NCBI GenBank assembly: GCA_977020255.1 | Contig: CDROCS010000453.1 | Coordinates: forward strand, 1-64,000 | Reading direction: 5' to 3' | DNA from: Obrimoposthia wandeli | Taxonomy: Eukaryota | DNA length: 64,000 nt | In this document: one piece after another, positions 1-22,403 of the stretch | How the letters are laid out: every line of letters begins with the position of its first letter | How positions within the stretch are numbered: position 1 is the stretch's first letter | The notes under the pieces: generated by a model | Databases searched by the model: none | Told to the model about the DNA's origin: nothing | Seen by the model: only the letters and a program-made list of their open reading frames with translations | Made by a program: the position numbers and the translations under genes

Positions 1-3
1 CTA

Positions 4-1234
4 CAGTACAAGTCTGAGTTACCCCCAAAATTGTAAGTTGTTTTGCTTTATTCAACAACAAAAAATTAATAAAAAAACTAAAATTCTAAACATTTACTTT
101 ATTCAATTAAAAAAGTTTTAAAAAAATCTTCATTACCTCGGCCAAAATAATCACCAGAGGAACTCATTAAGAAATTCATTCCCTTTAATTCCCCAAGACA
201 CTTTTTTCCTTAATAGCTAGTTTTAATTGTTAGACCAAAACTCTCAACACCACTTTCCAGATTCACGAAATGGTATTTGTGACACAGTTCGATGTTCGAA
301 CCCAGTAATACTTCCAAGGGTTTTATAACTAGCAAATTCATAAGTATGGATGATACTACCATGTCTTACAGCCTTGGAAATAATGGGAATGATTGTGGTT
401 TTGGTTTTGTTCGGTAACAAACAACAAAAACCTTTGGCTGGGGTCGTAGGTGTATCAACAATATGCAACACCCATGTTTGGCTTCTTGGAGCTCTTCCTC
501 CACAGGCTTTAACTGTATGGTTAACCATCACTTCATCAATCTGGCAATACAGCCTGGCCCATCGAGCATGATTGGACTTTTCATGAAATGTGTATCTATT
601 TGTTTATTAAAAACATTCCTTAATTTTCAGAATTGAATGTCTTGCCATTCCAACATAGTTTCAATTTCAATAAATTTTAGTTTGTTACAAAGGTGTCCTA
701 AAACTACTATAATGTTCTTCAAGGTTTTTGAACATAAAAAAAAACGAATTAGTTTTATACTCCTGGTTGTTGAAATTTCATACATCTAGGGATTAAGAAA
801 CCTCCCAATTGCATCAATGCAATTATCTTTGGCGTGTTTCAATATCATAAGAACTTCACAATACTTACAGGACATATTCACTTTTTATTAAACCTAGTGT
901 CATTGCAAACTGAACGATTTCTCGTTTTGTGACCTTTCTACCTTGGATAAAAATTCATGTAAAACATTTTTTTAAAATAATTTTTAAATCGAATATATAT
1001 AAATCAAATACAAACCAACTCCTGTTTAAACCTCCGGATTTATCCAGCCGTAAAACTAACTAACTAACTAACTAAATATTCATTTTCTTTTTAATATTTA
1101 TATTTTATAAAAAAGTGTATTTTTTCTGTTGTTTAGTTTATTTCTTTATTTGCAAAAATACCATCGAGTTATACCCCAATAAAAGATACAAGTCTGAGTT
1201 ACCCCCAAGTGGGGGAGTAACTCGAACTTGGTCC
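4..1234 (-). mobile_element. Merlin (IS1016/IS1595-like) DNA transposon relic with degenerate DDE transposase
   Basis: Minus-strand translation across frameshifts (~130-570) reads LDGPGC..QIDE..VNHTVK..GRAPRSQTWV...LPNKTKTTIIPIISKAVRHGSIIHT(Y)EFASYKTL...EHRTV and later RGIK...NEFLW. This follows the Merlin pattern (GGxGxxVEIDES, WVFG, NRTxxTLxxII, GSxIHTD). Motif TACAAGTCTGAGTTACCCCCAA occurs at 7-28 and 1187-1208, with a degenerate inverted copy at 1211-1234. Confidence 0.8.
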
Positions 1235-1974
1235 AAAATGTCAGCCAGGTCCTATGCCCTTGGCCTCAATACCTCCAATTTTAACGTGATAACCAAATGG
1301 CAATTACAGTTTTTAAGTATTCTAAAATAAAAAGTAAATACTCGATTAAATTTGTGGTGAAAAATCCTGTTGTTAGTACAATTTACCGAACAAAACTACA
1401 GGAATGTAATCAAATTGTTAATTTAATTTTGTTAGAAAATAGTAACCACTTCATATTGTGATATTCCTAATTTAAATAGTTAACGACTTCAATTGAACAA
1501 AATCACATAGTTTCAAATTTTCTAGTAGCAATAACTCAGTTGTTTTTCTGTTTCGCCTAGGCTTCATGATTATCAGTGCGCAATCATACATACATAGAAA
1601 GATTAATCCCATATTGCCTGATGTTCTGGGTTAGGTCTTCTAACAGTTAATCCGATTTTAATATTTCATAAGTCATTGAAATAAAAAGTAGGAGAGGGAA
1701 AACTAAACTTACTTTAAATGCAAAATTCCATGTTTAGTTCTTCTCCATTGAAATGAATTAAATTTCATTGTTGACAAATTATCCTAAATTTTATAGAATA
1801 AATAATCCGTCTATTCACTGGGAGATAAATAACGGGGTTCATCCTTTCAATGAATAGTATTCTATTCTTTCGAAACCATCCTGACCATAAAATATATAAA
1901 TTATGTATTTTTTTTCTCTAAACTACTGTTAATAAACGGTAGATGAAGAAGTAATTTTTATTCAGGTAACAAAC

Positions 1975-2069
1975 AATAATCAATTTCCGTTAGGTTTTCA
2001 GGCAATAATATGTAGTTGTAATAATCAATTTCCGTTAGGTTTTCAGGCAATAATATGTAGTGTAATAAT
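1975..2069. repeat. Tandem duplication, 45-bp unit x2
   Basis: AATAATCAATTTCCGTTAGGTTTTCAGGCAATAATATGTAGT(T)GT repeated head to tail, with one indel. Confidence 0.95.
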
Positions 2070-2154
2070 TCTTCGTTATCTAAATATTATGGTTTTTAAT
2101 CAAATTAAAATAGTGTGATCCAATTCACAAAATCAGTCCTTTAAATTGAATTTC

Positions 2155-2864
2155 TGTAGACAGATTCAACTATCCTGATCTGTTCAGAGATACAGCGAAG
2201 GGGAAAATCGAATGGCACAGTGCGGTAGACAGTTGAGGAAAAACGATTTCAGCAGTCAGACAGAGAAATCAACATGATTTGATAATAATAACTTTCTGTT
2301 TCTGGCTTTTTATTATTATTTGTAGTTTTGTCGTATATATATTCATTTAGTAGTGTGCAGCTTAAATATCTATCTGCTGCACATACTGGATAGATCTGGG
2401 CAGAGAGGAGAAGAACCGGATATTTCGGCTCTGCACACACTCACATGTGCAACCGGGGAAAATCCACCGCCCGTCGAACTCTGGCCAGGCGGTAAAAGTT
2501 TAATTTAAACACACACCCACCTGTGCACAATGGATAAGTAAGTGAGTGAGTAGGGAGAGTGAGTGAACAAGGGATTGAGTGAGCGATTGAGTGAGAAAAG
2601 GAGAGTGAGGAGTGAGTTGAGTGATGTCTGCTGTGTGAGTGTGTGTGTTGAAATGTGTACTTGCGCACACCAACAACATATGTCGACGATATTCGTCGGC
2701 ACATGAAAGGGGAATCTTTTCCCTGCTTTTTATTATTGTTGCCCTGGCTTCGCGGAATCCACCGCGAAGTTAGAGATAACAAGCCATCTCCCTGATGAGT
2801 ACCGGCAGGGCGAAACGGGCTTTTTCCCGTCGGAGATTGAATAGACAAAATGCCAAAGTGCACA
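2155..2864 (-). repeat. Putative 3' LTR (~710 bp)
   Basis: A GC-richer block bounded by TGT...ACA, lying downstream (on the minus strand) of the element's last ORF and a purine-rich tract (~2925-2975). It contains AATAAA-like signals on the minus strand, a CACT/GAGT microsatellite-like tract and several hairpins. It is unpaired, so LTR status is an inference. Confidence 0.5.
2786..2837 (+). ncRNA. Hammerhead ribozyme, type I topology
   Basis: ATCTCC [stem I] CTGATGA [core, 2792-2798] GTACC-GGCA-GG-GC [stem II] GAAA CGGG-CTTTTT-CCCG [stem III] TC [cleavage after C2831] GGAGAT [stem I']. All conserved core nucleotides are present. Confidence 0.88.
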
Positions 2865-3156
2865 TTTTAAAATCGGAACTTTTCCCTAATTAAGGAAAGT
2901 TCCCAATTAATTTTCAATTAATTAATTCCTTTTTACCTTTTCTTTTTTTAAAAATTTTTTCTTTTTCTTTTTATTTTTTAAACAAATAGCTAATATATTT
3001 TTCCAACAATCCTCCGGGTCATAAAAGTCTCTGTCCTCAGAATCATAATTTTTATCTTAATTATTAGTTAAACTATTTTGTCTTGTTTCTATTGTTACCT
3101 AGTGTTGTTTGTATGTTATAACTGATCAATGTTTTATTAATCACAATCATGTCTGG

Positions 3157-4197
3157 TTAAATATCGTTAAAATTTAGACAAGAATGAAAACAGAAATAAA
3201 ATAATAACAATACTACATAATCCAACAAAATCGGGGAGTTTTGTGTACCGGACTCCGAGTTTCCGGTCTTATGCGAGAACGATGAACTGGGGTTGTTCTC
3301 GCTAGATGGTGGATTCATCACCTCGGTCAAATCAAACTCTCTATTCAACATTTCCTCCTTCATTATGAAAATTTTTCGGGTGTGATTTGCATCTTCCATG
3401 CTAGTGTGGACTCCTTTTTGTGTTTCTATATTTAAGGTATTTCCGCACCATGTTGGCGAGTCCAATATTTGGGTGATTGTGATTTAGTTCTGATTTTATG
3501 CTTTTGGATATTCCTAAATCAACAATGTTGAATAGCATCCATTTCTGTAGGCGTAAAGCTTTTAAATCGTTTGTTAGTCCCACACCTACGATGATGTTAC
3601 CATACACAATGTTTTTTACTTCCTCAATTACTTCATCAGCATCTCTACATCCTTGTAACTTTCTATCTGACAGTCCAGTTATTCTAGTAACGTAATTTCT
3701 TACTCTGTTTCTAGATTACGCACAGTGTATCTATAATTACGTTACCTATGTAATATTATAATAGAAACACTTGCTAAAACTGGCTGTTTATCTACTGATA
3801 TCACCATTTCGCAATCGAGGAATAAAATTGCTGGTTTCTGTGCGTTTTTTTTCAAAAAGACTATTTGTTGAGGTTCTTCTGCTTTTCTTATTTTTTCTAT
3901 AAATAATAGATTTGGTCTCTTCCTATTTTTATGCTATATTGATTTTCTAATTGAGCTGCTTGTAAGGTGTAGGTGTGATTTCCTATCATCAGAAAGTTTA
4001 ATGTCTTATCTGATTTGGTTTTTAAATGCTACTCCTAGTGCCACGTGAATATCTATTTTTTCACAATTAATGTTGGGGAATATTCATACTGAGAGCCATA
4101 TGGGTTGGTCTTTTTCATTGGAAAAAATAAGTGCGCTAGTTCTTTCTTCTGTGGTAATTTTTAACTTATTAGGAAGAAATGTTTGATTTGAAAACAT
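3157..4197 (-). pseudogene. DEDDh 3'-5' exonuclease (REXO4/ISG20/REX family) with a ~120-aa N-terminal extension, frameshifted
   Basis: ExoI ILFLDCEMV (D 3814-3816, E 3808-3810). The middle reads VRNYVTRITGLSDRKLQGCRDADEVIEEVKNIVYGNIIVGVGLTNDLKAL (ExoII D ~3566-3568). ExoIII HTSMEDANHTRKIF lies at ~3370-3408. This parallels the REXO4 pattern ALDCEMV / DYRTxVSGI / GHxLxNDLKVL / HxSxQDA. ATG at 4197. Confidence 0.85.
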
Positions 4198-4556
4198 TTT
4201 CTTCCTCCGTTGTTTCTAAAGTATGCAATGCTAAACTGACGCATCTTTTGATACAGAGAATTTTGCTAATAACCACCTTTCTGGCATATTTTCCGTTTTT
4301 CCTCTTTCTATTTTTGCTGTGCTTTTTGTTTGATCTGACCGAGTGAGCTGGTCTGGAGTCGTATCAGGTGATTGCGATTATCCATTCTGCTTTAATCAAT
4401 TTTAAAGTAGTTGAATAAAATAATATAATTATTTCACAGTCTTAAAGTTATAAAAATATCAGTCTTATCCATGCAGTATGTGGGATTTGTCATGAAAATA
4501 AACTTATTAACAAAAGTTAGACAATTTGTACAAAAAGAAGGATGTATGATTATAGT

Positions 4557-4952
4557 TTAACCAGAATTTTGTTCACCAATGTTCATATCCGAGTCATATC
4601 CATCATCAAGTGTTGTATTAGTTGGGATAGTAGGATTAATGGTCAAATAAAAGTGTATCATGTCGCTATAGGTCATCATTTGTCTTCTTAATGAGGCTAT
4701 AGTTGATCGTTGACTTAAAGTTTGTTGTATTAAATAGTCTATTCTGCCAAAACTATGTGTCAATCTCCCTTCTAGTTCGTCAATTGTTAAATCATTATTC
4801 AATTTTTCTTCCACACTTTGTTTTATTAACTGTTTCAGTGATTCATTTTGAGTTGTGATCTTTATATAGTAGTCGTCATGCTGTCTGGAAACATCTCGAA
4901 TCTTTTTCTCTAATTTTTTGCATTTTTTACAAGCTTTTGCCAATCTGTTCAT
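4557..4952 (-). CDS. 131-aa coiled-coil accessory ORF of the retroelement, unknown function
   Basis: Uninterrupted ATG-to-stop ORF with heptad-like Leu/Ile spacing (LEKKIRDVSRQHDDYYIKITTQNESLKQLIKQSVEEKL...IDELEGRL). It shares the strand and composition of the flanking element ORFs. Confidence 0.6.
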   Translation of the reverse strand: MNRLAKACKKCKKLEKKIRDVSRQHDDYYIKITTQNESLKQLIKQSVEEKLNNDLTIDELEGRLTHSFGRIDYLIQQTLSQRSTIASLRRQMMTYSDMIHFYLTINPTIPTNTTLDDGYDSDMNIGEQNSG

Positions 4953-5304
4953 TTTTATATCTAAAAATAACCATTATTAAATTTCAGGATGCGTTTCCTG
5001 GTGATTTTATTTTAATATTATTTCATTAAATCGTCTTTAAAAATATATATATATCAAATTTTTATTCTATTTCCTAATTAATTTAGATTTACATAATAGT
5101 ACTAACATTTTTTGTTACTTAAACGGTTTTATTTAAAAAAGATTTGATTATTGTGTTATATTTCTTTTTCTATTTTCTATTACAGTATTTATGGATAATT
5201 CTGAAGAATTCTCATCCTTGGGAATAATATAAATAGTAAAAGGGCCTAGGACCCACAAAAGTGTTTTCGTTGTTTTGTTTCTATCATTTTTGTATGTTTC
5301 AAAA

Positions 5305-6420
5305 TTAACATTTTCCATGATATTTAAATGTATAGTGATTTATAAATGTAATCATTTCGATTACTATAACTATTATTATAAGTTCTTTTTTATTTTCATT
5401 CCTTGAATGTTCTTGTTTACTATAGTGCATTTTTAAACTTTCATTAAATGATTTATAGGATATTATTTCTGTTGTTTTTAATTTTAATTTAATTCTTATT
5501 TTTTCCGTAATTTCAACTTGATTTGTAACTCTGTAAATTTTTGATGTAAATGTTGTGGTATGTAGCAATTGTTTTGTGGTTATATCTTTAACATATTTCT
5601 TAATTTTTACTGCTGACCAACGACCACAAAAAATTGTAGGTTGATATAGTTTGGATATCTTATTTCCTAAAATTGTTAATTTTGTTAGATTTTTATAACT
5701 TTCAAACTTTTGACTCCATTGTCAGTACATTATTGGTTTATTAGTGATTACGCATTCTCTATTGTCTATTATTATTTTCTCTGGATATCTAATATTATCT
5801 ATTGTTAAATTTGTTTTATTTTGTGTATTTTCTAATTGTTTTCTGAGTCTTTCCAAAAATTAGCATTGTGTCCTCTATATCTAATTCTAATGAGGGCTTT
5901 ATCTAAGTCATCTATTTTTAGTTGAAATTCCCATTTTATCATTATTTTATGTTTTGATATATATTTTGCTGTTGTTTTTTAATATTGATGCTAGGTATAT
6001 GTGAGTTTCTATAATTCTTTCATAGGTGTTATATTTTTTAATTTCGACTTAATTCTTATTTTATATTGTGTTTCTGTTCTTAAAAATGGTATTGTATATT
6101 TTTGTGATTTTATTCCTGAAATAATTATATTTTATTTTCTATCTGTTTGTGTGATTTGCACATTTCCTGTTTTGTTTGTAAGAAGAGAAATATTTAACTT
6201 TATTGATGTGATTTTAGGTATTATTGTTATTAATCCAAAATTTTTTATGAGATGAGTTGTTGAGTCGTATTTATTTGTTTGTTGCTGTATGATTGATTGA
6301 TTTTCATTTATGTTTGTTGCGTTTGTTTTCAGTAGGTTATATTTTATTATAAAATATATTATCAATAACATCATTATTTTACCAATTTCTTTTATTGATA
6401 TTTTATTGTATTTCTGGTTT
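5305..6420 (-). pseudogene. Second membrane-protein ORF downstream of integrase: signal-like segment, FN3-like ectodomain, C-terminal TM
   Basis: KISIKEIGKIMMLLIIYFIIKYNLLKTNA (basic then hydrophobic). The ectodomain includes SQKYTIPFLRTETQYKIRIKS and IKWEFQLKIDDLDKALIRIRYRGHNANFWK (FN3-like strand patterns) and several N-glycosylation sequons. TM segment ELIIIVIVIEMITFI at ~5335-5385. Several frameshifts and stops. Confidence 0.5.
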
Positions 6421-8660
6421 GATGACTCAAAATAGTTTTATTTTGTTTTTGTGAGTTTTTTATTGTCAACATTTGTAGTACTGTTGTATCTTTAGTTGGT
6501 CTTATGTTATATTTGTGACTTTTTACTGTATTCTCCTCAGGTATTTCTCGACATCTGTTTATATGTGCTCTTATTTCTTTTGATTTTGGTTCATTATCTA
6601 GTTTAGCTGTTATGTTGGTTCCGTTGGTACTAATGACTGTATATGTTCCTTTGTATGACTTTGATAATTTGTGAGACAATCCTACATTAATTTGTGGATT
6701 GTGAATCATCACTTTACTTCCGCTTTTTATATTTGATGGCTTAGTTCTTCTATCCTAATATTCTTTGTAATTTTCTTGTATGTTTTTTACAAATAGTTTA
6801 GCTTTTTCGAATGCTAGTTTTATTCTTTCTCTAATTTCTATTTTATATTCAGGTATTTCTAAATATTGTGTAGTAGGTTGTAGTAATGTTAGGTCAATAG
6901 GCATTTGAGGATCTCTGAGGAACATAAGATAAAAAGGTGTTTCTCCTGTGGATGCATGTACTGATGTTCTATATGCAAAAAGGCATGGAGGTATGTGTAA
7001 ATCCCAATCTGTTTGATTGTTGTTTGTGTATGATGCCATCATATCTTCGAGGGTTCTATTAAATCTTTCTACTAACCCGTCAGTTTGAGAGGTTATATGG
7101 TGTTGTATTGATCTTTTTATGTGAAAAATTTCAGCTATTGACGCTAATACATTATTTATAAATTCAGGACCTTTGTCGGTTAATAATTTTCGGGGTGCAC
7201 CGAAAGTAAAAATAATTTTTTCGACTAAAACCTTCGCGATGGTTTCAGCCTTATGATCATGTGTTGGAAAAGCCTCTGGCCATCTTGTAAAATAATCAGA
7301 AAATACTATTATATATCGATTTCCTCGGGGTGTTTCAGGTAATGGTCCCATTACATCCATGGCAACAGTTTCCATGGGGGCCGATGGATAAGGCATTGGC
7401 TTTAAAGGTACTTTTGTGGTACGTAAAGTATTTTTCCGTTTAAGACATATTTCACATGTTTTACACCAATTTTTCACATCTTCCTTCATGTCAATCCAAT
7501 AGTATTTTAAATTTAATCGTGAATGTGTCTTTTTTGATGATAAATGTCCTCCTAGGGCTCCATTATGATATTGAAGAAGTAATTGACACTGAATTTCTTT
7601 AGGAATAACTAGTGAATATAGATATTTGTCATTTAAATAATATAATATTTCATTACTATACTTGTATCGTGATTCGTGAATTTTTAAATGTTTTCTTAAT
7701 TTTTCATCTGTTGGTACTTCGTTTGTGCTAATGTATTTAGTTATTTGCTGAATTTCATTATCTTTGCTTTGAAGTTTAGTAATTACTTTTTCATCATATT
7801 TAGCTTGAATTATTGTAAAAAGATTTAATTCGATGTCGTTTGCAGTTATTTCGTTTATTTCTTCTCTTATTCGTGATAGACAATCTGCATTAGCGTTAGA
7901 TTTTCCTTTTCTATATTTTATTTCAATATCATATTTTTGTAAAATCAATGCCCATCTCATTAATCTAGATGTTGTATCCTTATGATTTAAAAGCCATTGT
8001 AATGGTCTTTGATCTGTGTAAACATAAACCTTTCGACCTAATAAGTAATGTTTAAAATGTTCCATTGCGAAACAAATAGCTAGGCATTCTCTTTCTATCG
8101 TTGAGTAATTCTTTTCATGTTTTTTAAGACCTCTGCTCGCATATGCTATCACATGATCTTTTTCGTTATTTTCCTGTTGTCCTAAAACTGCTCCTAACGC
8201 ATAACCACTGTCGTCAGTCATAACTAAAAATGAGTTATTAAAATTAGGATATCTAAGTATAGGTTTTTCGATTAATTTTTGTTTTAAATATTCATAAGAT
8301 TCTTGTTGTTCTTTTTCCCATTCAAATTTTTCATCTTTTTTAATAAGTTTATTTAATGGTATTGCTATTTGTGCGAAATTTCTAATAAATCTTCGATAAT
8401 ATCCTGCAAGCCCTAAAAATTCCTGTATATTTTTTACTGTTTTTGGGATTGGAAAATTTTTAATCTTTTCTACATTACTCTCGTCTGGTTGTATTCCTTT
8501 TGCTGATACAGCATGTCCTAAGTAATTTACTTTATCTTTTATCCATTCACATTTCTTTGGTTTTAGTTTTAATCCTGCTACCTGTAATCTTAAGAATACG
8601 TTTTCTAAATCTTTTAAATGTTCTTCAAAATTTTTTGAAAAAATAAGAATGTCGTCGATA
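6392..8660 (-). pseudogene. pol: Pol, 3' part: RT C-terminal half, RNase H, integrase with GPY/F module
   Basis: IDDILIFSKNFEEHL...KLKPKKC...YLGH...FLGLAGYYRRFI (RT). FLVMTDDSGYALGAVL, YSTIERECLAI and YTDQRPL (RH). HHCC zinc finger, VAMDVMGP, LLTDKGPEF and DGLVERFNRTL (IN). After a premature TAG at ~6755, KLSKSYKGTYTV (GPY/F). Confidence 0.95.
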
Positions 8661-8662
8661 TA

Positions 8663-10218
8663 TAATATACGTCAAAATTAATGCACATTTTGTTAAAAAA
8701 AATAAAAATATGATTTTATAATTATAAGTATATTTTAATTTCAAATTTTATCAAGAAATTTTATTATATGTAACTTATTAAAGTTATTAAATAATTATTA
8801 GTAGTTATATAATAATATTTCATTTAATAATTTTAGGTTATTTGTTTCACTATAATCTGAATGACGTCATAAAAAACGCACAATTCAAATTATTAGGTAT
8901 TATTGCATATCTTTATAATTAATCATATTTATTATAGGTCAAATTGAAATTAACCATGTCGAAACAATTGACAAAAGAAGAAACTAATGCTATAATTAAT
9001 TTGGTAAACGAGGGGCGCACGTTTACACATATCGGTTTAATCTTTGGTAGGAGCCATACTACCATTTCAAGATTGGTTCAAAGATTAAATAATCCAAATT
9101 ATATGGATGAAAAGAAGAGAGTCGAAAACAGAAGCTTACAAGGTTTCAAAAGCATGGTAAAGCGAATTACGAATCACGAGCCATTCCTGAGTGCGAATGA
9201 TGTAAGAAGAGCTAATCTGACCGATATCATATCAATTCGATCAATGCAGCGTTACCTCAACAGAATGAAACTTTTTGGGCGCATAGCTAAAAGGATTAAT
9301 CTCCAAACTAAAGCATCGCGAAAGAAACGAATAGACTTTTGTAAAAGTGTCAACAATTGGAATTTAGATACTTGGAAAAATATAAATTTCTGATGAAGGT
9401 ACGATTCGAATTAGAATCTAAAAGAATAATGTATGTTAGGAGACCCATTGGGCTAAGAAATCGTTTAAAATATTGCATAAAATTTCGTTATCAGGAGAAA
9501 AGGCATTATGTTCTGGGGTTGTATTTGTTCTGACGGCAGGAGAATAATTGTACTACTGGATCTGGATTAATAGCATTTCTTAAATTTATTAAATGAACAT
9601 TATTTATATGATTTTGGTAATAATATAATGCTTCAAGATATCAGTCATACATCTCTATACGAGGCAATTCTTTAATAACCACAATATAAGAATAGTTGAA
9701 AATTACCCTCAAGATCTCCAGACATTAATGTGATTGAATGTTTGGAGCATTGTAAAACTCAGTTAGAAAGAGATATCCAAGAAATTTAATTCACTTGAAA
9801 GCAATTGTAAATGAAGAATTCCATAATGTTTCTCTAAATGTAATTGATAAATTATATAAAAGTCTACCATTGAGAATTGCTACAATTTTATCAAATAAAG
9901 GTGAATAAGTATTAATATATATTGATTTTCATTGTTGTATTATGTAAATTTTGTAATATATGTAATTGCATAATTCATTTTTGTTATTTATAAAGTTTTG
10001 TGCGTTTTTTATGACGTCATTCAGATTATAGTGAAACAAATAACCTAAAATTATTAAATGAAATATTATTATATAACTACTAATAATTATTTAATAACTT
10101 TATTAAGTTACATATAATAAAATTTCTTGATAAAATTTGAAAATAAAATATACTTATAATTATAAAATCATATTTTTATTTTTTTTAACAAAATGTGCAT
10201 TAATTTTGGCGTATACTA
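8663..10218 (+). mobile_element. Tc1-family DNA transposon with ~220-bp TIRs and TA target duplication, inserted in the RT
   Basis: Near-perfect inverted repeats at 8663-8882 and 9999-10218, with TA at 8661-8662 and 10219-10220. The frameshifted transposase (8944-~9910) has an HTH region, then F(S)DEG, MFWGCI and SPDINVIE. Removing the element restores GTA ATG GTA TAT ATC GAC GAC (VMVYIDD). Confidence 0.95.
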
Positions 10219-10220
10219 TA

Positions 10221-11490
10221 TACCATTACGTGATCTGCATCCATTAAAATATGGCTCATACATCTCTGAAATGTTGCTGGAGCTCCGGTTAATCCAAATG
10301 GTAAGACATTGAATTCATACAATCCTTCTCCTGTTGAGAAAGCTGTTTTATATTTATCTGACTCCTCAATTTCTATTTGCCAGTATCCACTCTGTAAATC
10401 TAAAGTTGTAAATACTTGTGCATTTTTCAGTTTGTCTAATATTTCATCAATTCTTGGCAGTGGATAAGTATCTTTGTGAGTGACTTCGTTTAGTTTTCTG
10501 TAATCTACGCAAAATCTCAAAGAACCATCTTTCTTTTTTACTAAAACGACAGGTGATGTCCATGCAGAAAAACTTCTTCTAACAATTTCATTTCTAACAT
10601 TCCTTTTATTTGTCTTTGAGCCTCATCTCTGTAGGCATATGGAATTCGGTAGGGTCGTTGTTTTATTGCGGTGTTTGTTGTTAACGGAAGATTATGTTTT
10701 ATCAAATTTGTTCGACCTAAATCGTATTCATTTTTAGCAAATATTACATCATATTTTTCTGTTAAAGTTTTAAGTTTTGATTTTTCATAATCATTTAATT
10801 TAATATCGTTAAAATTTATCGTAGATTTATCTTCTATTTTTTCATTATCTATTAATTCAATATTTTCAATAACACTTATTTTTCCAAGACGTACTCCTTC
10901 CTTGAGATGAATTTCATTAATGTCTGCATTTAGGATTCTGATTGGTATTGTGTTGTTTTTTATTTTACAAATTATATTTGCAAAACGTAGTTCAAGGTTT
11001 CTTGTTGATATTTATAAGGCTCAAATAATACATCTTTTCTGTGATTATGTTAGTTTCTAGTTGTAACATTGTTTCTGTTCTTGGTTGGAGAATGATATCT
11101 CCTTTTATTTCTAACTCGTATTCATCTTTGGCGTTAGATCTGTAAATGTATTTTATTTGATTTTTCAAAATCAAAGTGGAAATTATTTCCTAATCTTCTT
11201 AATGTATCTATTCCTATGATCATTTGGCAAGGACAATTTTTCATTATTCTTGTAGGTAATTTTATGAATTTATATCCTATTTTAAAAAGACAGTCTAATT
11301 TTCTTATTATATCTACGGGTTGACCGTTTGCTGCTGTGACTTGACTATTTTCCTTAAGAAGAAGTAATTTTTTGTTGTGTTTTAAGAAAGATTCGTCTAA
11401 AACTGTTACGCTTGATCCTGTGTCAATTATAAGCTTTAAGTTTATATTCGTTAATTTCTACCTTTACATATGGTCGTTTATCGTTATCTT
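10221..11490 (-). pseudogene. pol: Pol, 5' part: aspartic protease, spacer, RT N-terminal half
   Basis: KRPYVKVEINEYKLKA(fs)IIDTGSSVTVLD (protease, DTG ~11417-11425). Then KQRPYRIPY, SPVVLVKKKDGSLRFCVDYRKLN, YPLPRIDE, LDLQSGYWQI, KTAF and FNVLPFGLTGAPATFQR. Confidence 0.95.
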
Positions 11491-11669
11491 TTGATTTATT
11501 GTATATATTGTTGGTGCAGTTGATTTTTGTATAGTTGTTTTATCTATATATTTTTCTAAATCAGGATATTGTGAAGATTCCGTTTTTTCTGTTTCTTTGG
11601 TACTTGTAATTTTTTGTATATTTGTTTCTCGCATTTCATTTGATAATGTGTTTACTATGTTTTGATGAT

Positions 11670-13544
11670 GATTAAAAATAAGGAATTTTGCCAAAAATGG
11701 GAAACATCCTAAGATTAATTTCCATGTTAATCCTCCAACTTTATAAATATAATATGTTGATAAAATTTGACTTAGAAGAATCTTAAACAAATTAATAGAG
11801 CATATATTCCAACTAATCCAGAAAATGCTTGTCCAAAAATTAAAAATTTACCCCATATTTTTGACATGGTGTTTTTAGTGGCTTTTATAAAATGATTTGG
11901 AGAAAGTAATAAGTCGTAATCGGGACGGCTAATTCCGTCAGGTACTGATCTTTCTATGATTTGTGTTAAAATTCTGGATCTTATTTGTGGAAATAAAATT
12001 TATTTTCTTAACTTATCTATATCTTCCTGTATATAAATTCCTTTTTGTGTTTAATTCGTTATCTGATTGTATATTGATGTCGTTGCTGAGAGTGGTTAAT
12101 TGTAATTTTTGTGGTTCTGCGACAATATCTCTTCTTGGAAGTGAAATCCAAATATCTTTTGAAATTTGATAATGAAGTGCCATTATGTTTGAGCAGTTTA
12201 TTTCTTTTATGCTAAAAGTGTTAAAAAGTATAAATTTAGTGATTGGTTCTACAAATAATGAATTATTTTTGTAAGAAATTGGTAATTCTTTTGTACATTT
12301 TTGATGATTTCTTATGTTAACTATTACTTTTTTACATTGATAAGTGTATAACACTTCTCCCATTACTCTTCCAAAAGTACCGTCAGCTAATGGTAATAAT
12401 GGTGTTATTAATTCTGGGTTAGTTGCAATAATTGCCAATTTCGTTTTTAATATTTCCTGATTTAATTTACAATCATTCATTATAGTTTCTCTATATATTG
12501 CTTCTATTGTCATTAGTCCTTTGTGATAAAAATAATCTAATTTATTGTTAAAATAATCATAATTTTTAATATCAAATTTAGTTGGTGTCGTTTTTGCATT
12601 ATGTATTTTTTCATTACTTAAATATATTCCTTTATATTTAGTTGTATAAAGAGAGTGTCCACATCGGGATTCCTCTTTCTTTTTAATAAATCGCATTCCT
12701 GAACCTTGTTCAATAGACATTAATATAGTTGGAGTTGGTGTTTTACGTATTTTTCTAGTTCTATATATTTTGTGTATGTCCTTTGGAATTTGTTGATCTA
12801 GTTCCGGATCATCTCTAAATCTTTTTCCTTGAATTATTTGAAAAGTTTCTGATTTTAAATGTATTAATTTACATTGATCGATTTTTACTTTGTAGTAAAG
12901 TATTGAAGAACCCGTGTTACAGTGACCTATGTTTGCTTCACAAAATGGCATTGTTACCATTGTGTTTGTAGAAGGGTCGAATGTTGCTTTGAAAGTTCTT
13001 AGTTCGACTTCAAAATTTTTAATAACTACTAAACCACTTTGCTTAACTCCCATTACTACATAAGTTCCTGTTGTACATTCTCCATCAGATTTAATCGTAC
13101 CTACAACTGATATCATTTGTTGAATTATTTTATTTTTCGCCGCTCGGACTTTAATTTCTCTATCTATTCTCCTGTTGCGAAAGCATCTTTACTATTAAAA
13201 GCGTCAACTATTATTGGTGTTTTTCCTAATGCTGGTTTTACTATTGAATTGTGACTATGTTGTCCACAATATGTTATAAATGTCTCTACATGTACTCTAC
13301 ATTCGAAAACTTCTGCATATATGAAATCTGTTTCCTGATATACTTGATATAACTTAGTATTTTGGATTTTTACCTCATTTGGGTCAGCGTCTGCACATTG
13401 CTGTAAATCCATTAAAGAATATTTATTTTGGATTTTATATTTTGAACAATCATATGCTTCTAAAGCATTAATTGGTTTTATCATGTTCATAATTAGACAT
13501 ATTATTAATATTATCTGAATAATTTTCCATAATTTTTTCATCAT
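11670..13544 (-). pseudogene. env: Envelope glycoprotein, chuvirus-G / herpesvirus gB-like class III fusion protein type, located between gag and protease
   Basis: Signal-like MMKKLWKIIQIILIICLIMNMIKPINA, then AYDC...SLMDLQQC, FECRVHVETFITYCGQHSH, VGTIKSDGEC, C..NIGHC, CKL....LKTKLAI..TNP, GEVLYTYQCKKVIV..R...CTKELPISY....FVEPIT and C......YQI...W. The membrane region is WGKFLIFGQAFSGLVGIYALL. The cysteine spacing matches my recollection of chuvirus-type G proteins. Frameshifts at ~13164, ~12013 and ~11790. Confidence 0.8.
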
Positions 13545-15350
13545 TTTATTAAGATTATTTGTATGGTTAAAAATTTTAGTTTTTTGATTTTCTATTGTTT
13601 TACGATTTTTCTTGTGTTTTACTTTCTTTTCTTGTGTTTGAGTAGTTTGGTTTGTTTTTGTGATTGTATATTTATTTTTTTGTAATGTCAAACAACCATC
13701 TCTAAACATGTCTCCAAATTCGGATTGTAAGTTTGTTCTATCTGTTTGTGGTTCACTGTTATGGCATTGTTGGTGTATTTCTCTGTAACGATTATCCATT
13801 TCTTTAAGTCGTAATTTTAACAATGCTAATTCGTCTGTGTTTGGAGTTGTTTCTGTATTTTCTATAGTGTGAATAGGGTTTCTTGGGGTATATTGTTGAT
13901 CTTGAGTACTGAATTGTACTGTTTTTTGAACTTGTGGTTGCTGTTTTATTATTGTGTTTCCAAATTGATTCATCATTGTGTTTAATTTTCCACAGTCATC
14001 GGTGTTGTGATTTTTCATATTACAAATCTTACAAAATTTTGTATCATTATTAAAATATCTATTTTGATTATTGTCATAATTATTTGGTTTATTGAAGTTA
14101 TTATTCCTTGGTAGTGTATTATTACTCTGTCTATTTATTAATTTTCTACAAGTTTCAATTGTGTGATTGTCTTTTTTGCAAAATCTGCAAAATTTTATGT
14201 TACTTAATTTTCGACAATTTTCTATTGTATGGTTTTGGAGTCCACAATTTGTGCATTTTTGAAAAGATCTTTGTGTAAATTGTGAGTATGCAAAATTTCT
14301 GTTTGTCTGGTTTCTATAAAATTTATTTATTGGCGGTCTAAATTGTTGAGGATTTTGAAAATTATATTGAGTATCTTGGTTAAAATTCCTAGATTGGTTG
14401 TAGTTTCGTGGCATTTCTATTTTTTCAAAAGATAATGCTGAAACTTGGGTTTGCTGTATCATATTCAGTCTTGCTTCTACTAGTTGAGCTTTTCCTATAG
14501 CCTGTTGAAAGTTTTCTACTTCTAGTAATGCAGGGTGATCTCTAATTTTGTTATTTAATCCATGTAAAAATTGATGTAAAAGTAATCGTTCTCTTTGTGC
14601 TTCTTCTATTTCGGGAAAAGATTTTAATGCAAGTCGTCGTAATTCGACTGCGAATATATTTGTGGGTTCCCCTACATGTTGCTCTCGTTGTCTAAATTGA
14701 TTTAAGTAGTTCTGGTCGGACTGTGCTCCTAAAACCATATTTTGGAAATGCTGGACTAAGTGTTCCCATGTGTCTTTTTGCAGATTTATTAGTCCTCTAT
14801 AAATGGTTAGGGCAGTGCCTTTTAGGTATGCTGGAAAAACTTTAAGTTTTTCTAGGTCTGTCCATTCGAATGCTTGAGCAAAAGAATCATATCTATTCAA
14901 GAATTCTGGTAAAGATGATTTATCGCCATTAAATGCGTCTAGTGGTATGTTTAATCTATGATTTGCCATTTGAGGTACTTCGTTTATTTGTTCGTTATTT
15001 ATTTCTATGTTAGGTGGTACTGGTTCTGCCACTGTTTCTGATTTTTCTGACGAGTTGTCTGAGTCAGATGTTTGTGGTAAGGATAAACTTTCTGTATCTG
15101 AATTTGATGTTAGGTTTTGGTTTTCAGAGTCGGTTGAAATTAAGCGATCCGTGTGTTGGTGAACTAACGTAGTTTCAGGGAAAAATTCGTTATTTGTTCT
15201 AAAATTTATCTGGGATTTAGGTCTCTGTGGTAGTGTTTCGCTTGTGTTAGTTCTTACCAATCTAGTCTGAATGCGTCTCCAGTGAAGATTAGCACTACGT
15301 TTAGATTTTGAAATCTTTGTGTATTGTTCACTATTATCCTGCGTACTGGG
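13545..15350 (-). CDS. gag: Gag with three CX2CX4HX4C zinc knuckles, in the same ORF as the env signal peptide
   Basis: Capsid-like region (FNGDKSSLPEFLNRY..FAQAFEWTD..KL..FPAYLKGTA...YAVELRRLA-like FAVELRRLA...QFLHGL). Knuckles CTNCGLQNHTIENC, CRFCKKDNHTIETC and CKICNMKNHNTDDC at ~13990-14255. The frame is open from ~15360 to 13164; the true start codon is not recovered. Confidence 0.9.
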
Positions 15351-16419
15351 TCGAAAATTAATTTATGTGTTTATATATTGTTGTCTAGTTTTGTTGAAAA
15401 CGATTAAATAAATTTTATATTTTAAATAAATGAAATTTTTTTTAAAAACAGTCAGGAATTATTTCTGCTCTGTGATCAAAATACAGCTCGGCGTTATGAT
15501 AATCGATTACCGTGATTTGAACTGCACTTTCAACCAAAGTAATAGAAAAATTTAACGATGAAACTCCAAAAAATCTGAGTTAAAACTTGTTGCGAGTGTG
15601 GGAAGATGCTGATACCGCACCAATCAGCCAAAATTTAAAATATGCCTTGCTCAATGCAGTGTTGAATGAGTTCTTGGCGGAACTTGTTACTCCTCAACGG
15701 CAACAGCAATCATCACATCAGTATCCTCTTTTCCAGATGCAACATGATGCTAAAATATTTGTTTCTAATTCGCTAGTGTTTATTGAACTAATATTTGTCT
15801 TGACTTTTTATGTCAGGTAGGAGAAAAGTAAATGGAACATTTCTTATACATTTGACTTCGTCAAAAGATTAATATTAATAATAAAAAAATTGTCAGAAAT
15901 AAAAAGTAGTAACATCAAGAACCACATAATCAAATAGAGAAACTCCAAATTACAGCGTTTTTCGTAACGTTTTTTATAGATTTTTGTGGGCCATTCAAAC
16001 AACATATAATGGGAAAATAAAATAATTGCTATAATTGATCAATTCAGTTCTGAACACAGTCAAAGTTTAAAACAACAGCAACACAAATTATGAACAATTG
16101 AATTCTTAAATTTGGAGCTCCGAAAAAAAACACATTATGAAGGAAAGAAATAATTCTAATCAGATTTAATGAAAGAGCTAGCAAAGATAATTTAAAATTA
16201 TATTATCATTTTCAAGTCTACATCATCATTCAAGTAATGGATTAGTCGAAAAACAAATTCCGAACAATCAAAGTTTTTTTTTTGAAAATATATTCTAAGG
16301 TGAACTGGCAATGACGGGTTATAAAGGCGTCTGGGCATCTCTGGATTAGAACAATAGAATAAGTATCGATACACGCCCTCCGAAACACGAAATATACGTT
16401 TAATAATAAATATCAATAC

Positions 16420-19400
16420 ATCTGTTAAGGTCCCGAAACGGAGATTTTATCAAATTTAAATTGGCTATATTTATAGTACTGCCCAAGGTAATTTTAGGAA
16501 CCTGGAAAATTAAAATTAAATAAAAAATCTAAATTGAAAAGGGAAAATTATCAAAAAAACAAGAATTAAATAACTGCATGTTGAGAAATGGAGGAGTTAA
16601 TTAACCTCAGGTGATCTCTAACTCTATTATTAATATAGTCACCAGAGGCAATAAAAAGAACGAATTGTAGTAGCCGAGTGACTCAACATTTCTAGTAGGA
16701 CGGTGTTTGAAGGCAGTGTGTCGACAGAAATCTGCAACTTCCAGAATTTAAAGAGCCTAATTGGTCTACAAATTTTATAAAAGAAGAAACGCGATTTGAC
16801 TTCAACACAAATTTATATCGACAGAAGAACATTGTCGTTAAGATCGATGACAAAATTATATCGAGAGATAAAAGAAAATACTATTAATCATCAATCGACA
16901 AGTGACAAGAAGCCCTCATTGACACAAATTTTTATAAAACTACATCAACATAATATTATTTAAACTAAACTAAATTTTAATAACCTGTACTGGTAACAAT
17001 TTTCATATAGTTAAAATCACTGACCAGTAACGGTCACTGCCTTGTCTATGTCCAAAGCCCGTCAGTAGGATTAGGAACAAGCACACATATATAGCTGGAG
17101 TTGTGATGCTGTTTGTATAACAAAATTATTGAAGTGACATTTATAAACAGTTTTAGTATTGTACCAAACAACCCAATCGCTTTATTATAACATTTTTATC
17201 GACCTGTCATTAGTGGAATATCTTATCAAAGCGATTTGCGTTATATACTTTGACCATTTAGAAGATAAGTAGATATATGTTGTGAGGCACATAACCACAG
17301 AAAATAACTCAGTAATCAATAGTGAGCAAAACATAACCGTATAATACCCTATGATATAAATTACCCTTCAGACGTATTGAAACAATGCAGGTAGACCTTC
17401 CACACAAGTCCTATAATTCCTAAGAATTCGCGCATCAGAGGGTTCCCTAAGAAGTGAAACAACTTTGGTTCCAACACACCAAGCATTCTAATAATGAAAA
17501 TATTATATATAAAACTTACAGTTATTTAAAAGTGTTAGGATGAAGAAAAAGAAAAAGAATAAATTGGTTATTTATAGTAGATGAATAACCTTCATACTTA
17601 AGGTTACAAAAGAATAAAATAAAAATTATAAATTATCTACAAACAAAATAAAATTAAACTGTAAAACTACGACCTTGATAGGCCATGAAAATGAGTATAT
17701 AAGTGTAAAAACAATGTAAAAAAGGGCGGGGAAACAAAAGTAAGTTGAAGTCGACGAGAAAAAATGACAACATCTTAGCGAATCAAGACAGTAAAGTAAG
17801 TCAATTGTGAAGATATTCACATAGTTAATCCTGATCAACCTGTCAGGAAGTCACATCGAGCGTATCCGGCTGCTCGTACATAGCTGGGAATTCGAACACC
17901 AGTACGAGTAAATATAAAAAGGTGAACGTAATAATTAATTTACTAGTTAGTAGGTGACAACTGAGCGCTTCGTACCAGGACGAATTGGAATCGGAATTTT
18001 ATAGACAAGGAAGTGACAACTGAGCACTTCATACCAGTGTTGATAATAATAAATATAGTAAAAAACTGTGTGAACTCAACTTCTAATGTTGTCCCACGAA
18101 TTAAATCGACTCCCGGTTGAGAGCGACTGAGCTACAGTTTGAGGCTAAGACATCATCTAGTTAGATGTAGATCTGTATTCCGGTTATCGGAAATAGTAGA
18201 AGTAGAACAGATTTGTCAGGCTTAATTTTACCCAATTTCTTGGTCTAGACTTAGTCAGACTATTTTTGAAGTTAAAATCACATTCGATCTAACCGGCTAA
18301 TTAATACAGACCTACATTATATTGTTAGGATTAGGATTTTTAATATTTTTTGAAAATAATTAGTTATTAATAAAGAAATTAAAACCTTGAAAGTAAGGTT
18401 AAAATAAAATAAAATTGAAATATAATTTAAAATTAAATATAATAAAATCATCAAGTATTTTAGGAACTTGAATATGTCAAGTGTTTAATGCGTTGTATAT
18501 AAGGGAAAGTTTAGGGCTCCAACGGGACAAAAGTAATTAAGCCACCTAAGAGAAGAGAAGAAGAGAAATTAAGAAGAAAATCAACAGTCAACAGAATAAG
18601 AGTAATTAAGAAGAAAATCAACAGAATCTCCAGTAGCACTTACTTAGGTCGTGTTCAGGACAATTCCATTAGTGCCACTTAGCGCCACTACACGTTCTCC
18701 AGAACAACAAGAAAACACTGCGAACCAACTGCCGATAGCCAGACTGAAAGGTGAGTGCACATAAACTAAGTGCAAATTAATTGTTTTATTTAGACCTATA
18801 AAAGAAAAGATACTTACCCCAAAAGCACAGAGTTGCTGAGAAAAGGAGAGCTAATTTTAAAAGAAGAATTACTTACACCAAAGACAGATTGCGGAAAAAT
18901 GAAGATTTTATTATAAATTTGTTGAATTCAAAGATTAAATGAAGATTTGTTCATAAAAAAAGATTGTGAAATCAACAAACGCGCCGAGAAAAAGGTGAGA
19001 TAGATAAACGAGTTCTCTCATTGTAGAATCGATAAAAATAAGGCAAATTAAAGAAGTTATAATTTTACTTTTCAGATAGACGTGCCAAGAAAAAAGGTGA
19101 GAACGAGAAAGATTTTGAATTAAACTAAAATATACTGAAAGAGTTTGAATTTTAAAGTGAGAACGAAAATGATTTTGAATTAAACCGATTTTGAATTAAA
19201 CTAAAAGATACTGAAAGATTTTGAATTTTAAAGCGAGAACTAAAAGATAAATTGCGTTTTATATAAAAGATATTTTGCGTTGATTTAAAGATTTTTGCGT
19301 TTCAATTAAAAGATAATTTGCGTTTTGACTAAAAGAAATTGTAATTTGAAATAAAGAGTATAGAACTCGTAAATTTGTTAGACCGATTAAAATCGATACG

Positions 19401-19940
19401 CTAAGACATCGTCCGTTTTTGTGACGTTTGTTGCAGTAGTTAGGACTAATTGTTGTAATTTTTAGGAACCTAGTTGGAGTGAGATTAAAGAATAAAGTTT
19501 TCCTACAATTAAGAAATGTTTAGTTGAAAAAACCCCTACAACCAGGCAAATACCAACTCTCCATACATTATACCACAATTAGGGAAGTTTTCCAGTACTC
19601 CGTGCACACAACTCTTTACACATCTCCACAACACAGATTGAAAACAAAACCTTCAGATAAGAAATTGAGACAGGTAAGAAGATTTAAATAGGCCACGAAC
19701 AACTGCAAGCCCTTTTGCTATAGAACTCACGTTGGGGGCCTCCATACGACGATCTATCTAGTAGTTTAATATAGAAACCCCAACAATATCACAATAGTTT
19801 TTTATGGATATCACAGTTAATTGTACACTTACATTCCACAATACACCTTCAGAAAGATTCAATTATGTAGGCCTAGTATATCAGAAAGACCTATTGATAT
19901 AGGACTCCCGTTGGGGGCCTCCATACGAGGATTCTAGATA
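16420..19940 (+). repeat. Unclassified repeat-like segment, A-rich on the plus strand, with internal sub-repeats
   Basis: Duplicated motifs: GACAACTGAGC(G/A)CTTC(G/A)TACCAG (~17956 and ~18015), ATTAAGAAGAAAATCAACAG x2 (~18568 and ~18606), GATTTTGAATTAAAC repeats, and a 34-bp duplication at ~19720 and ~19899. No recognisable ORF. Confidence 0.35.
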
Positions 19941-20587
19941 GAAATTTATCCGACTTTTATTTTGTAATTATTTTCCTTATGACGACTTTCTTTCTAACGC
20001 TTTTTCTCTTTAACTACTTTTATGTCTTTTATGTTGGACTTTAGTAAGATGAAGTCTATTGTAATTTAAAAAAGGTTAAAACAAATTCAGGATGGACTCA
20101 TTAATCTATTCGCAGACAAAAATTGGAAAATATTTTCAATTACCTCATTTTTTAAAGAATCTACTGACAAAATACACAAAATTCCAAAGTCCAAAATATC
20201 ACAAAAGACAGTGAATAATAACTAAATGATAAATAACACAAACGAATGTACAAAAATAGCAAATCTCTTCATTTTTTACAAATGAGAAAATGGAAAACAT
20301 CAACACAGTTACATGGAAATTCAATTTCCAACTCTGATGGCCTTAGCCACCCCTCCTTCGGTTAGTCAGGCTCTGATTAGTCAAAGCCTGCTAACCAATC
20401 ATGGTGCCGAAAATGTGTGTCATGAATGGCTGAGCTGCAGCAGATGAAATTTGCAGATTGACCTTGACCGGCAGTGTCTCCATGTCTCTGGAATTGCCTG
20501 ATTCTCGGATCGAGCCGTCGCCCCGGTTGTACTCTTCATCTCCGTCACTCAACCTACGTTAATTCTCTGTGTGACCTTGTCGTCATT

Positions 20588-20939
20588 ATGGAAGCAGAGC
20601 TCAAGTGCCCGCACTGTTCACTTTGGTTTCGGCGCTCATTGCTGTTGCCATGTGGGCACAGTGTCTGTCATCAGTGTGCAATGGAGCTCACCAGTGACTC
20701 GGTTGTCCCAAGCAATCCGGTTACTATGACAACCACAGCCACTGTGGCCATGGCAACCGCGACAGCCACATCCAGTGAGCCGGACTCTGACCACCTCAGC
20801 GAGACCAGTGAAGCAGATTCCGGTGTCGTTGTCAGCAGCCATGGAGGCGCTCCCAACAATAGCTCCCTAGCAACGACTACTGCAGCCCCAACAACTACCC
20901 CACAGTCAGCGTCAGTCGGCTCAGCAGCTTCCACTACAG
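20588..20939 (+). CDS. TRIM9: TRIM9/TRIM67-like E3 ligase, coding exon 1 (RING N-terminal half)
   Basis: MEAELKCPHCSLWFRRSLLLPCGHSVCHQCA...SEADSG, matching TRIM9 LKCPVC..LPCSHNLC..CA..SEADSG. Donor CAG|GTGCGT is phase 1, consistent with exon 2. TRIM9 versus TRIM67 is not resolvable here. Confidence 0.88.
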
Positions 20940-22149
20940 GTGCGTCACCCCAGCAAAAAGGAGAGAACAAAACGTATAGATTCAATCTGTTACTTTAACC
21001 ATTTTTAATTAAAAAAAACTGAATACATGCCAAGTATTCGCGAAATAATGATCTTTTCCATTTTTCTATTTGGTAAATTAACATCGAATTATTAATTCAT
21101 AAATGTGATGATAATACTTAAGCAAAATTAAGTAATAATTGTATGACAATGTGTTTTAATAAATTGAAAAAGTTAACTGGTTTCATATGTTTTGTAAAAT
21201 GCTTTTGGAATTGCTTAACTGGGTTTCTATTGTGCTTCGAATAAAATATCTACGATTTATTGGTTCTACGTTATACTAAATCAATGATACACTTACTTTG
21301 TTTTGTACGTAGAAATACTTTCAATCATTACGGGGTGATTTTAAACTTATTTTAGTATTTAATTATATTTTTAAATTTAAAACTGTATCAAAAGTAAAAT
21401 TTAATTTAAGAATTTATACAGTATTGGTAAATTTAATAAAGACAAACCCTATTGATATATTCGACATCATATCTAACAACATTGTAAAATAGTTTGACTA
21501 ACCCAGGATTAGCCGAAATCTTATCTATCTTGCAAATATCTATTATGCGGGAAAACTTGGTTGAAAATGTAAAAATTTAACAGATCAGCAGCTCATGTCC
21601 AGAGTAATTTATTATTAGAATCCGGATGTTAAAGTCCAGAAATTCCCTACCAATGACTCATAAGAAGTAAGCAGCAAAAGGTAGCACACTAATATGAAGT
21701 ACATTTATTTAATTAATTTAATGCAAATTTATAAATACAGTGTATTTTTTCATAATATTTTTTTTATTCAAAGCGGATCTATTAGTCTGAGACTTATATT
21801 CATTCAGCGTCGATTTAGACATTTAAGGAGAAACACAAGTTCCTTAATATGGCACTGGGTATATCGAGAAAAATGCATTGCTGTATTTATTTACTTTGAG
21901 AAGTAATGAATACAACCAATTTCTACTTATACATTACCCATCTTTACTAATTACTACTGTCATCAGCATTTACAATATATAATTAATATTTAGTTTTTTT
22001 TCAGAAATCGGTAAAATAGCGTATTCGTCATCAAAATTGTTTCCTGAATTTATTTAATGTCAGATATAACTTATTTTTACACAAAACGTTACTTAAAGTA
22101 TAGTTGGACTATTTAAACACTTTAAAATGTTTATGCATTATGTTTGTAG

Positions 22150-22403
22150 ATAACCTAGAACATGACCTTGTCAAATTAGGCCACTGTCTCGGTCCGCCCG
22201 TATCCACGGTGATGTGTGTCAACAATCGACCGAGTCAGTACTCGCTGCGCTGTCCCTCGTGTCAGCGTCTCATCCTGCTCGACTCAACCGGTACCGAATG
22301 TCTGGTACGCAATCGCGCTCTCGACCGAGTCGTCATGAGATATCAAGAGAAGATGGCCGGCCCAGATGCCCCAGCAACCGCTGACCCCCTTGTTCTGTGT
22401 CAG
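22150..22403 (+). CDS. TRIM9: TRIM9-like exon 2 (RING C-terminal half to start of B-box1)
   Basis: Acceptor TTGTAG|AT (phase 1). LRCPSCQRLILLDSTGTECLVRNRALDRVVMRY matches TRIM9 ITCPQCHRSLILDDRG...KNRVLEGVIDRY. Donor CAG|GTAGGT is phase 0. Confidence 0.9.

Follow-up and report, generated by a model that had tools for sequence, protein, structure and literature searches.

The locus

We analysed a 64,000-nt stretch of Obrimoposthia wandeli DNA (the window), following up an earlier note that had placed a retrotransposon-borne DEDDh exonuclease gene at 3157-4385. The window contains a gag-env-pol element on the minus strand, followed by the accessory gene under study and a 3' block. In the direction of element transcription, the features are the following.

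19735-19744 and 19914-19923, minus strand: two tRNA-Thr-like primer-binding-site candidates, 4.4 kb upstream of the gag ORF and possibly linked to this element
13611-14942, minus strand: gag, with three CCHC-like knuckles in its translation, in frame with the env start
11587-13592, minus strand: gB-like / Monjiviricetes-type fusion glycoprotein (env), broken, between gag and pol
10224-11491, minus strand: protease and first part of the reverse transcriptase (RT), broken
8659-10222, plus strand: Tc1/mariner-like insertion with 225-nt terminal inverted repeats (98%), splitting RT
6470-8656, minus strand: rest of RT, RNase H and integrase, in Ty3/gypsy order
4557-6437, minus strand: A-rich decayed ORFs between integrase and nuclease gene, with weak coiled-coil-type Pfam matches only
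3157-4385, minus strand: broken accessory gene, consisting of an N-terminal extension, a double-stranded beta-helix domain, a REX4/ISG20-like DEDDh domain and a tail of about 60 codons
3877-4215, minus strand: its N-terminal jelly-roll (double-stranded beta-helix, AlkB/cupin class) without Fe/2OG motifs, assigned by profile and by models of relatives
3346-3828, minus strand: its DEDDh 3'-5' exonuclease domain, D-E-D-H-D intact, with three frame breaks
2936-2972, minus strand: purine/A-rich tracts, PPT-like or a decayed A-tail
2786-2837, plus strand: type I hammerhead ribozyme, antisense to the element, in a GC-rich block at about 2400-2850

The order gag, gB-like env, protease-RT-RNase H-integrase is that of a Metaviridae (Ty3/gypsy) element of the GAG-ENV-POL type with a gB envelope. 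Three pieces of env match PF24664 (E 2e-35, 3e-16 and 5e-4), and the gene carries four breaks. The closest pols are 46-56% identical, nearly all of them unnamed and on contigs of 6-32 kb, and several have env inside the polyprotein. Related gag-env-pol polyproteins (P0044, P0046, P0051, P0061, P0073) include a second protease, ankyrin repeats, C2H2 fingers or Ig domains; the entry P0052 is filed under a Flavobacteriaceae MAG and is probably misbinned.

The transposase of the Tc1/mariner-like insertion is itself broken. Just upstream of the nuclease gene, an open 138-codon coiled-coil-like ORF (4557-4973, minus strand) is possibly another accessory gene. Elsewhere, an ISXO2/Merlin-like transposase remnant lies at 244-603 on the minus strand (PF12762, E 5e-6), and GC-rich host exons within AT-rich introns occupy 20500-23600 on the plus strand. 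Judged by eye, we take these exons to be those of a TRIM9-like RING/B-box gene.

A broken gene with a complete catalytic set

Three-frame translation of the minus strand recovers all three Exo motifs where the earlier note had read them: LDCEM at ExoI (D near 3816, E near 3810), NDLKAL at ExoII (D near 3568) and HTSMEDA at ExoIII (H near 3408, D near 3393), with positions counted on the translation ruler. The catalytic D, E, D, H and D are thus all present in the window copy. A frameshift-aware profile alignment places breaks near 3755, 3715 and 3435, bearing out the frameshifts proposed across the nuclease. The gene runs without introns from 4385 to 3157 on the strand of pol, again as previously described. 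The upstream MDNRN frame, suggested earlier as a possible extension, also finds support: its ATG at 4385 stands about 187 codons ahead of ExoI, and the same span is 174-299 codons in 12 intact relatives. This frame contains two stops and includes a segment that by eye resembles the first helix of the family.

The nuclease gene accounts for 11% of the aligned length but for 5 of the 15 breaks, and is more broken than gag-env-pol (p 0.018); therefore, it may have been dispensable in this copy. Its frame terminates at 3157-3230 in a hydrophobic segment that recalls a membrane anchor. This may be an effect of decay, since the tails of the relatives are acidic.

The nuclease domain and its relatives

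When 1.84 billion representatives were scanned in full with HMMER, 19 proteins reached E <=0.001. Thirteen of them are unnamed intronless proteins (ENA, Logan, JGI or unnamed NCBI records), which we treat as one family, of 15 members after the addition of P0024 and P0025. The other six are cellular REX4/SDN-like proteins, three of which are named (two sedge proteins, one of them SDN3, and a krill REXO4). Pfam labels 17 of the 19 as RNase_T at E 0.01. Single pieces of the window nuclease give weak matches (for the 104-aa piece, RNase_T at E 0.07 and ISG20 at E 0.18). The alignment to the relatives' profile extends from 3828 to 3346 over columns 3-162 of 163 at 171 bits, a score that is partly circular, as the relatives were selected with the 3404-3715 piece.

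Other searches added little to this set. A word-based homologue search for longer proteins with the 104-aa piece retained none of 135 candidates, and the same kind of search with alignment A1 retained 4 of 6563, all unnamed. In a scan of GTDB genomes with P0002, none of 278 pattern matches was confirmed, and phage records held no match.

The window copy is 31-44% identical to the family. All 14 full-length family domains have the catalytic set, the ExoII position being D in 11 and E in 3; the fifteenth member, P0003, is cut at ExoI and lies outside this count. Such conservation of the catalytic set in every one of these domains, at low identity, suggests that the family has been selected for activity. 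The histidine of the ExoII G-H pair is gone in the window copy and in 10 of the 15 relatives.

Against the PDB, the family profile matches ISG20L2 (1e-28), ISG20 (1.5e-24), SDN1 (1e-18), PAN2 (2e-9) and PolC (3e-8), and a search of the ESM Atlas reaches an 'RNA exonuclease 4 family' cluster at 0.90. The model of the intact relative P0005 has an RNase H-like DnaQ fold, with ISG20 as its best structural match (Z 22.0, rmsd 2.0, 161 aligned) and a TM score of 0.87-0.90, by target, against ISG20L2. These profile and structure matches support the REX4/ISG20-type DEDDh identity assigned earlier, and by both kinds of prediction the nuclease is closest to ISG20/ISG20L2. In a tree of 20 rows, four of them cellular and with P0006 and P0019 dropped for short coverage, the window copy and the family fall on one side of a branch that separates them from the four cellular rows (94/97); an AU test does not reject grouping the window copy with these four (p 0.47).

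An N-terminal double-stranded beta-helix domain

The earlier note had also described an unrecognised N-terminal domain, and this domain is real. Window positions 4215-3877 align to columns 18-132 of a 133-column profile of the unnamed relatives at 49 bits; none of 200 triplet shuffles exceeds 24.5 bits, and none of the 182 other window tiles exceeds 25.5. Under the stricter penalties of a first profile the score was 29.1, the highest values being 21.8 among 60 shuffles and 25.5 among 90 tiles. The relatives were chosen with the nuclease piece alone, and the upstream match is therefore an independent test. The window copy of this domain is interrupted by a stop near 4086 and by breaks near 4028 and 3924. 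In twelve family members a domain of 130 aa precedes the nuclease. Of nine pairs compared, seven have a tail that can be aligned, and in these seven the N-domain is the better conserved part. The window gene is a decayed member of a two-domain accessory nuclease family, apparently one that has not been described so far.

Two models, of the whole of P0005 and of the P0001 domain alone (pLDDT 91, pTM 0.83), predict a double-stranded beta-helix, and at the level of models we regard this fold as certain. In VIA-align comparisons with the P0001 domain, Ofd2 (Z 11.3, rmsd 2.6, 124 aligned), ALKBH6 (Z 11.2, rmsd 3.6, 131 aligned) and the best cupin (Z 11.0, rmsd 2.7, 93 aligned) are tied. The 2OG-oxygenases align over 119-131 of the 131 residues and so cover all of the domain, first helix included; cupin-type chains align over 85-108 and cover the barrel alone. 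Foldseek places plain cupins first by E-value, above AlkB-type chains, while its highest query TM is to ALKBH7 (0.65). An AlkB-type origin is favoured by the models because the 2OG-oxygenases span the full domain and the cupins only the barrel, although the Foldseek E-values favour cupins. The resemblance to AlkB proteins is a structural one, at 6-14% identity.

The iron triad and the 2OG arginines define AlkB / 2OG-Fe(II) dioxygenases, as set out in PMC9289625. Both motifs are missing from this domain: HxD/E is seen in 5 of the 12 rows, at varying places, leaving no HxD/E...H triad, and the R-x5-R spacing of the RxxxxxR motif in 3 of 12. With the motifs absent, we reject an active AlkB demethylase. 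Among H, D, E and R, the only columns conserved in at least 6 of the 12 rows of alignment A2 are a His (11/12), a Glu (9/12) and two Arg (6/12). Read against the same alignment, the window copy retains the His (near 4047) and the Glu (near 3897). From strand register and AlkB numbering, these two residues would point into the old cofactor pocket. The domain has no usable match in Pfam (12 members; best E 0.016, a different family each time), among PDB sequences (best E 0.77) or in the ESM Atlas.

The 3' block and the ends of the element

The earlier note had the gene followed by a PPT-like tract and an LTR-like block, a description that holds in part. Purine tracts are present at 2972-2955 and 2949-2936, but no TG follows them and the block is without a second copy: neither blastn nor local alignment against shuffles finds another copy of 1900-2960 within the 64-kb window. 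Paired LTRs with TG..CA ends and a target-site duplication are not seen, as would equally be the case if the 5' LTR had decayed or been lost. An AATAAA stands at the start of the purine tract, which may be a decayed A-rich tail, and a short inverted repeat adjoins the tract at 2880-2910. At 2456-2465 lies what is presumably a Rel/dorsal-like GGG-W-CC motif, one of three in the window.

The hammerhead in the GC-rich block was first spotted by eye; an Rfam scan of 1-20000 found nothing. In a post hoc search of 251 nt it scores 27.2 bits against RF00163 (gathering threshold 34, E 7.9e-5), aligned over the full model (1-45 of 45) with the CUGANGA / GAAA / UH core and three stems present. Of the stems, stem II is weak, and folding to minimum energy gives a different structure. 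A hammerhead descriptor finds one site in the window, and matches in 5 of 200 window shuffles. Animal type I hammerheads come mostly from retrozymes and Penelope pseudo-LTRs, according to PMC7229834 and 10.64898/2026.07.22.740005, and for this reason the 3' block may be a separate insertion. If the block does belong to the element, the ribozyme would cut antisense transcripts.

At the other end, the two primer-binding-site candidates were matched using the tRNA 3' 12-mers of supplement 1 of PMC13524379; no tRNA genes were found. Each candidate lies in one of two diverged 70-nt repeats, 179 nt apart, at 19684-19932. In the interval 15400-20400, no ORF reaches 110 aa until the host exon begins, and tblastx shows no similarity to the element. 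Within it, 15500-19300 shows a long plus-strand A bias and short tandem repeats without long ORFs, and could be either a leader sequence belonging to the element or what is left of a different one.

Association of the gene with the element

The coding strand of the nuclease gene is 40% A and 34% GC, compared with 43% A and 30% GC for pol, and is unlike the three host exons, with their GC of 57-59%. A minus-strand A bias extends from about 15400 to about 2600, interrupted at the Tc1 insertion and in one 200-nt bin at 4401. For the relatives P0001, P0012, P0016 and P0025, together with their clusters, contig sizes go up to 14-17.6 kb, roughly the size of a single element; most of the others are on contigs below 7 kb. 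P0025, a nuclease, and P0055, a pol 52% identical to that of this element, are each a single ENA record on a contig of 14,326 nt. This is the one exact match among 17 nuclease and 58 pol contig sizes (ten pol clusters expanded, of 120 pol matches), with a chance probability of 0.048, or of 0.007 when the comparison is narrowed post hoc to 15 x 16 ENA records with close pols. The equal contig sizes are indirect evidence of linkage between the nuclease and related elements in other genomes. Neither the N-domain nor the nuclease is fused into any of the 120 pol polyproteins.

The earlier claim that the gene is retrotransposon-borne finds support in the element-like composition, the N-domain common to unnamed intronless relatives and the 14,326-nt coincidence with a related pol. 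Because of these three observations, the gene is most likely element-borne and not a host pseudogene, as far as sequence comparison can tell, and the nuclease family is probably carried by enveloped Gypsy elements.

A possible function in counter-defence

Our preferred reading, to which we give slightly less than an even chance, is that of a decayed Gypsy accessory gene whose product combined an ISG20/REXO4-type exonuclease with a dead double-stranded beta-helix and acted in counter-defence. The gene would be a decayed copy of one that a lineage of large Gypsy/Metaviridae elements, of gag-env-pol type and with a gB-type envelope, carries downstream of pol. Its intact protein would be a two-metal 3'-5' exonuclease of ISG20/REXO4 type, with single-stranded RNA bearing a free 3'-OH as the most likely preferred substrate, and the catalytically dead domain would be a substrate-binding or dimerising module. 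Such a nuclease could remove single-stranded RNAs that lack protection and supply silencing or sensing pathways, namely antisense transcripts, sliced fragments and unmethylated small-RNA precursors, and the RNA of the element would be spared when poly(A)-bound or structured. That the protein is an active nuclease, that it prefers RNA, that its N-domain serves in binding and that it acts in counter-defence are all properties that we infer.

Mature piRNAs and siRNAs carry a 3' 2'-O-methyl group and are bound in Argonaute/PIWI proteins. ISG20, as described in PMC10902665, degrades single-stranded RNA, is blocked by double-stranded 3' ends, and is withstood by PABP-loaded and stable stem-loop 3' ends; titles in the reference list of that paper add that 2'-O-methylation counteracts it and that it also cuts ssDNA. 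These traits would fit the clearing of unprotected RNA and small-RNA precursors better than that of dsRNA or mature methylated piRNAs. An arenavirus-NP-like dsRNase, the analogy raised earlier, is down-weighted because ISG20-type enzymes, the closest ones, favour single-stranded RNA, and for this nuclease the analogy is weak. Arenavirus NP is not among the fold matches listed, which carries no weight either way. For the rotifer DEDDy ORF3, the account in PMC5408684 gives no clear tie to copy number.

A related proposal, in our view a long shot, is a modification-directed RNase, in which the dead AlkB-derived domain would read marked RNA and deliver the ISG20-like nuclease to it, while the antisense hammerhead, at the 3' border of the element, would cut incoming antisense RNA, the two forming an anti-silencing cassette. 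YTHDF2 can steer ISG20 to m6A RNA (PMC7046284), and this targeting therefore motivates the proposal. If it were true, the remodelled His/Glu pocket would read methylated or otherwise marked RNA, making the protein a one-protein counterpart of the YTHDF2-ISG20 pair and a new kind of epitranscriptome-guided nuclease.

Three further explanations compete with a counter-defence role. An element-borne enzyme might help replication by trimming the nucleic acids of the element itself, be it genomic RNA 3' ends, RNase H leftovers, primer tRNA or cDNA overhangs, and would then have no part in anti-silencing. Similar proposals appear for the rotifer DEDDy ORF3 (PMC5408684) and the KolobokD DEDDh (PMC9587614), and REX4-type enzymes process RNA 3' ends, as the title of an ISG20L2 structure entry has it. 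We nevertheless consider this rather unlikely, as Gypsy elements mostly replicate without such a gene, the separation of both domains from all 120 pol polyproteins means that the enzyme is not delivered as part of Gag-Pol, and the nuclease gene decayed faster than pol in this copy. An offensive or host-benefiting nuclease, which would attack the RNA of competing viruses or transposons (superinfection exclusion) or dampen host gene expression, draws on the broad antiviral RNase activity of ISG20 in vertebrates, on the restriction of LINEs by host DEDDh enzymes (PMC10123124) and on the antiviral role argued for transposon accessory domains in PMC6338049. An unselective RNase would, however, hit the RNA of the element too, and we find this explanation quite improbable.

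The gene might also be a passenger, either a processed host REXO4-like retrocopy or the cargo of a Penelope/Terminon-like element or retrozyme, next to a Gypsy element by chance, with the 'LTR-like block' being the hammerhead-bearing repeat of a separate insertion. The lack of a second LTR in the window, the A-rich tract with its AATAAA nearby, the retrozyme and Penelope association of animal type I hammerheads (PMC7229834; 10.64898/2026.07.22.740005), the DEDDy ORFs that Terminons and LTR elements have in common (PMC5408684) and the AU test are all consistent with it. It conflicts with the GC content of the gene, so far from that of the host exons, and with the near-continuous A bias. The N-domain profile comes from unnamed relatives, whereas the krill REXO4 (P0011) has about 25 residues before ExoI; the ribozyme and the gene lie on opposite strands; and a nuclease relative and a related pol share the 14,326-nt contig size. 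Taken in either form, a passenger origin is improbable.

If the counter-defence reading holds, this intact, conserved and purifiable family would open a direct biochemical way into the means by which large enveloped Gypsy elements resist host defence. To our knowledge, few suppressors of small-RNA silencing have come from animal retrotransposons.

Comparison with known systems

The closest cellular enzymes are ISG20, ISG20L2 and REXO4, REX4-like proteins grouped with SDN1 and PAN2, which have the same D-E-D-H-D set and give the best profile and structure matches. The family differs from them by its added N-terminal jelly-roll, its intronless genes and its mobile-element composition.

DnaQ-like domains are well-known LTR accessories (PMC6338049), and the DEDDy ORF3s of rotifer LTR elements and Terminons are already published (PMC5408684, PMC5718144). 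In bdelloid Juno/Vesta and in Terminons, passages of PMC5408684 likewise describe a DEDD ORF, downstream of a Gypsy-like pol, and advance similar hypotheses. That ORF3 is, in the Juno/Vesta elements, an RNase D-like DEDDy (DEED) enzyme and the elements are without env, whereas the window has a REX4-like DEDDh with an extra domain, and env is present; by sequence type, the two are separate captures. KolobokD also encodes a DEDDh accessory nuclease, yet it is a DNA transposon, and the text of PMC9587614 available to us likens its DEDDh to Exuperantia, TREX and ERI1, not ISG20, and leaves a jelly-roll unmentioned. A Cer element of C. elegans may carry a further RNase D-like domain. The gB-type GAG-ENV-POL errantiviruses of nematodes, bryozoans and flatworms (PMC13524379) and Burro (PMC6431247) likewise have env, in frame, between gag and protease; neither the main text of PMC13524379 nor the Burro section of PMC6431247 mentions a nuclease or an AlkB-like ORF.

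Searches of open-licence literature, mostly at the level of listings, gave no report of a REX4-type DEDDh or a jelly-roll-DEDDh fusion in LTR elements, and none came from the accessible text of PMC12440569, PMC10123124, PMC2774666 and PMC9094657. The nearest parallel to the N-terminal half is a paALKBH5-like ORF of an orchid Gypsy element, also a 2OG-oxygenase-fold accessory in a large Gypsy element. As reported in PMC9289625, the orchid protein retains HxD/E..H and RxxxxxR and demethylates m6A, whereas the window domain is without these motifs and is fused to a nuclease. Transposons are thus already known to carry DEDD genes, and it is the pairing of a jelly-roll with a DEDDh nuclease in such elements that is apparently new. 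With an N-terminal half that matches nothing in Pfam, PDB sequences or the Atlas, the architecture itself would be new, and an independent DEDD capture would here join those of the rotifer LTR elements and KolobokD.
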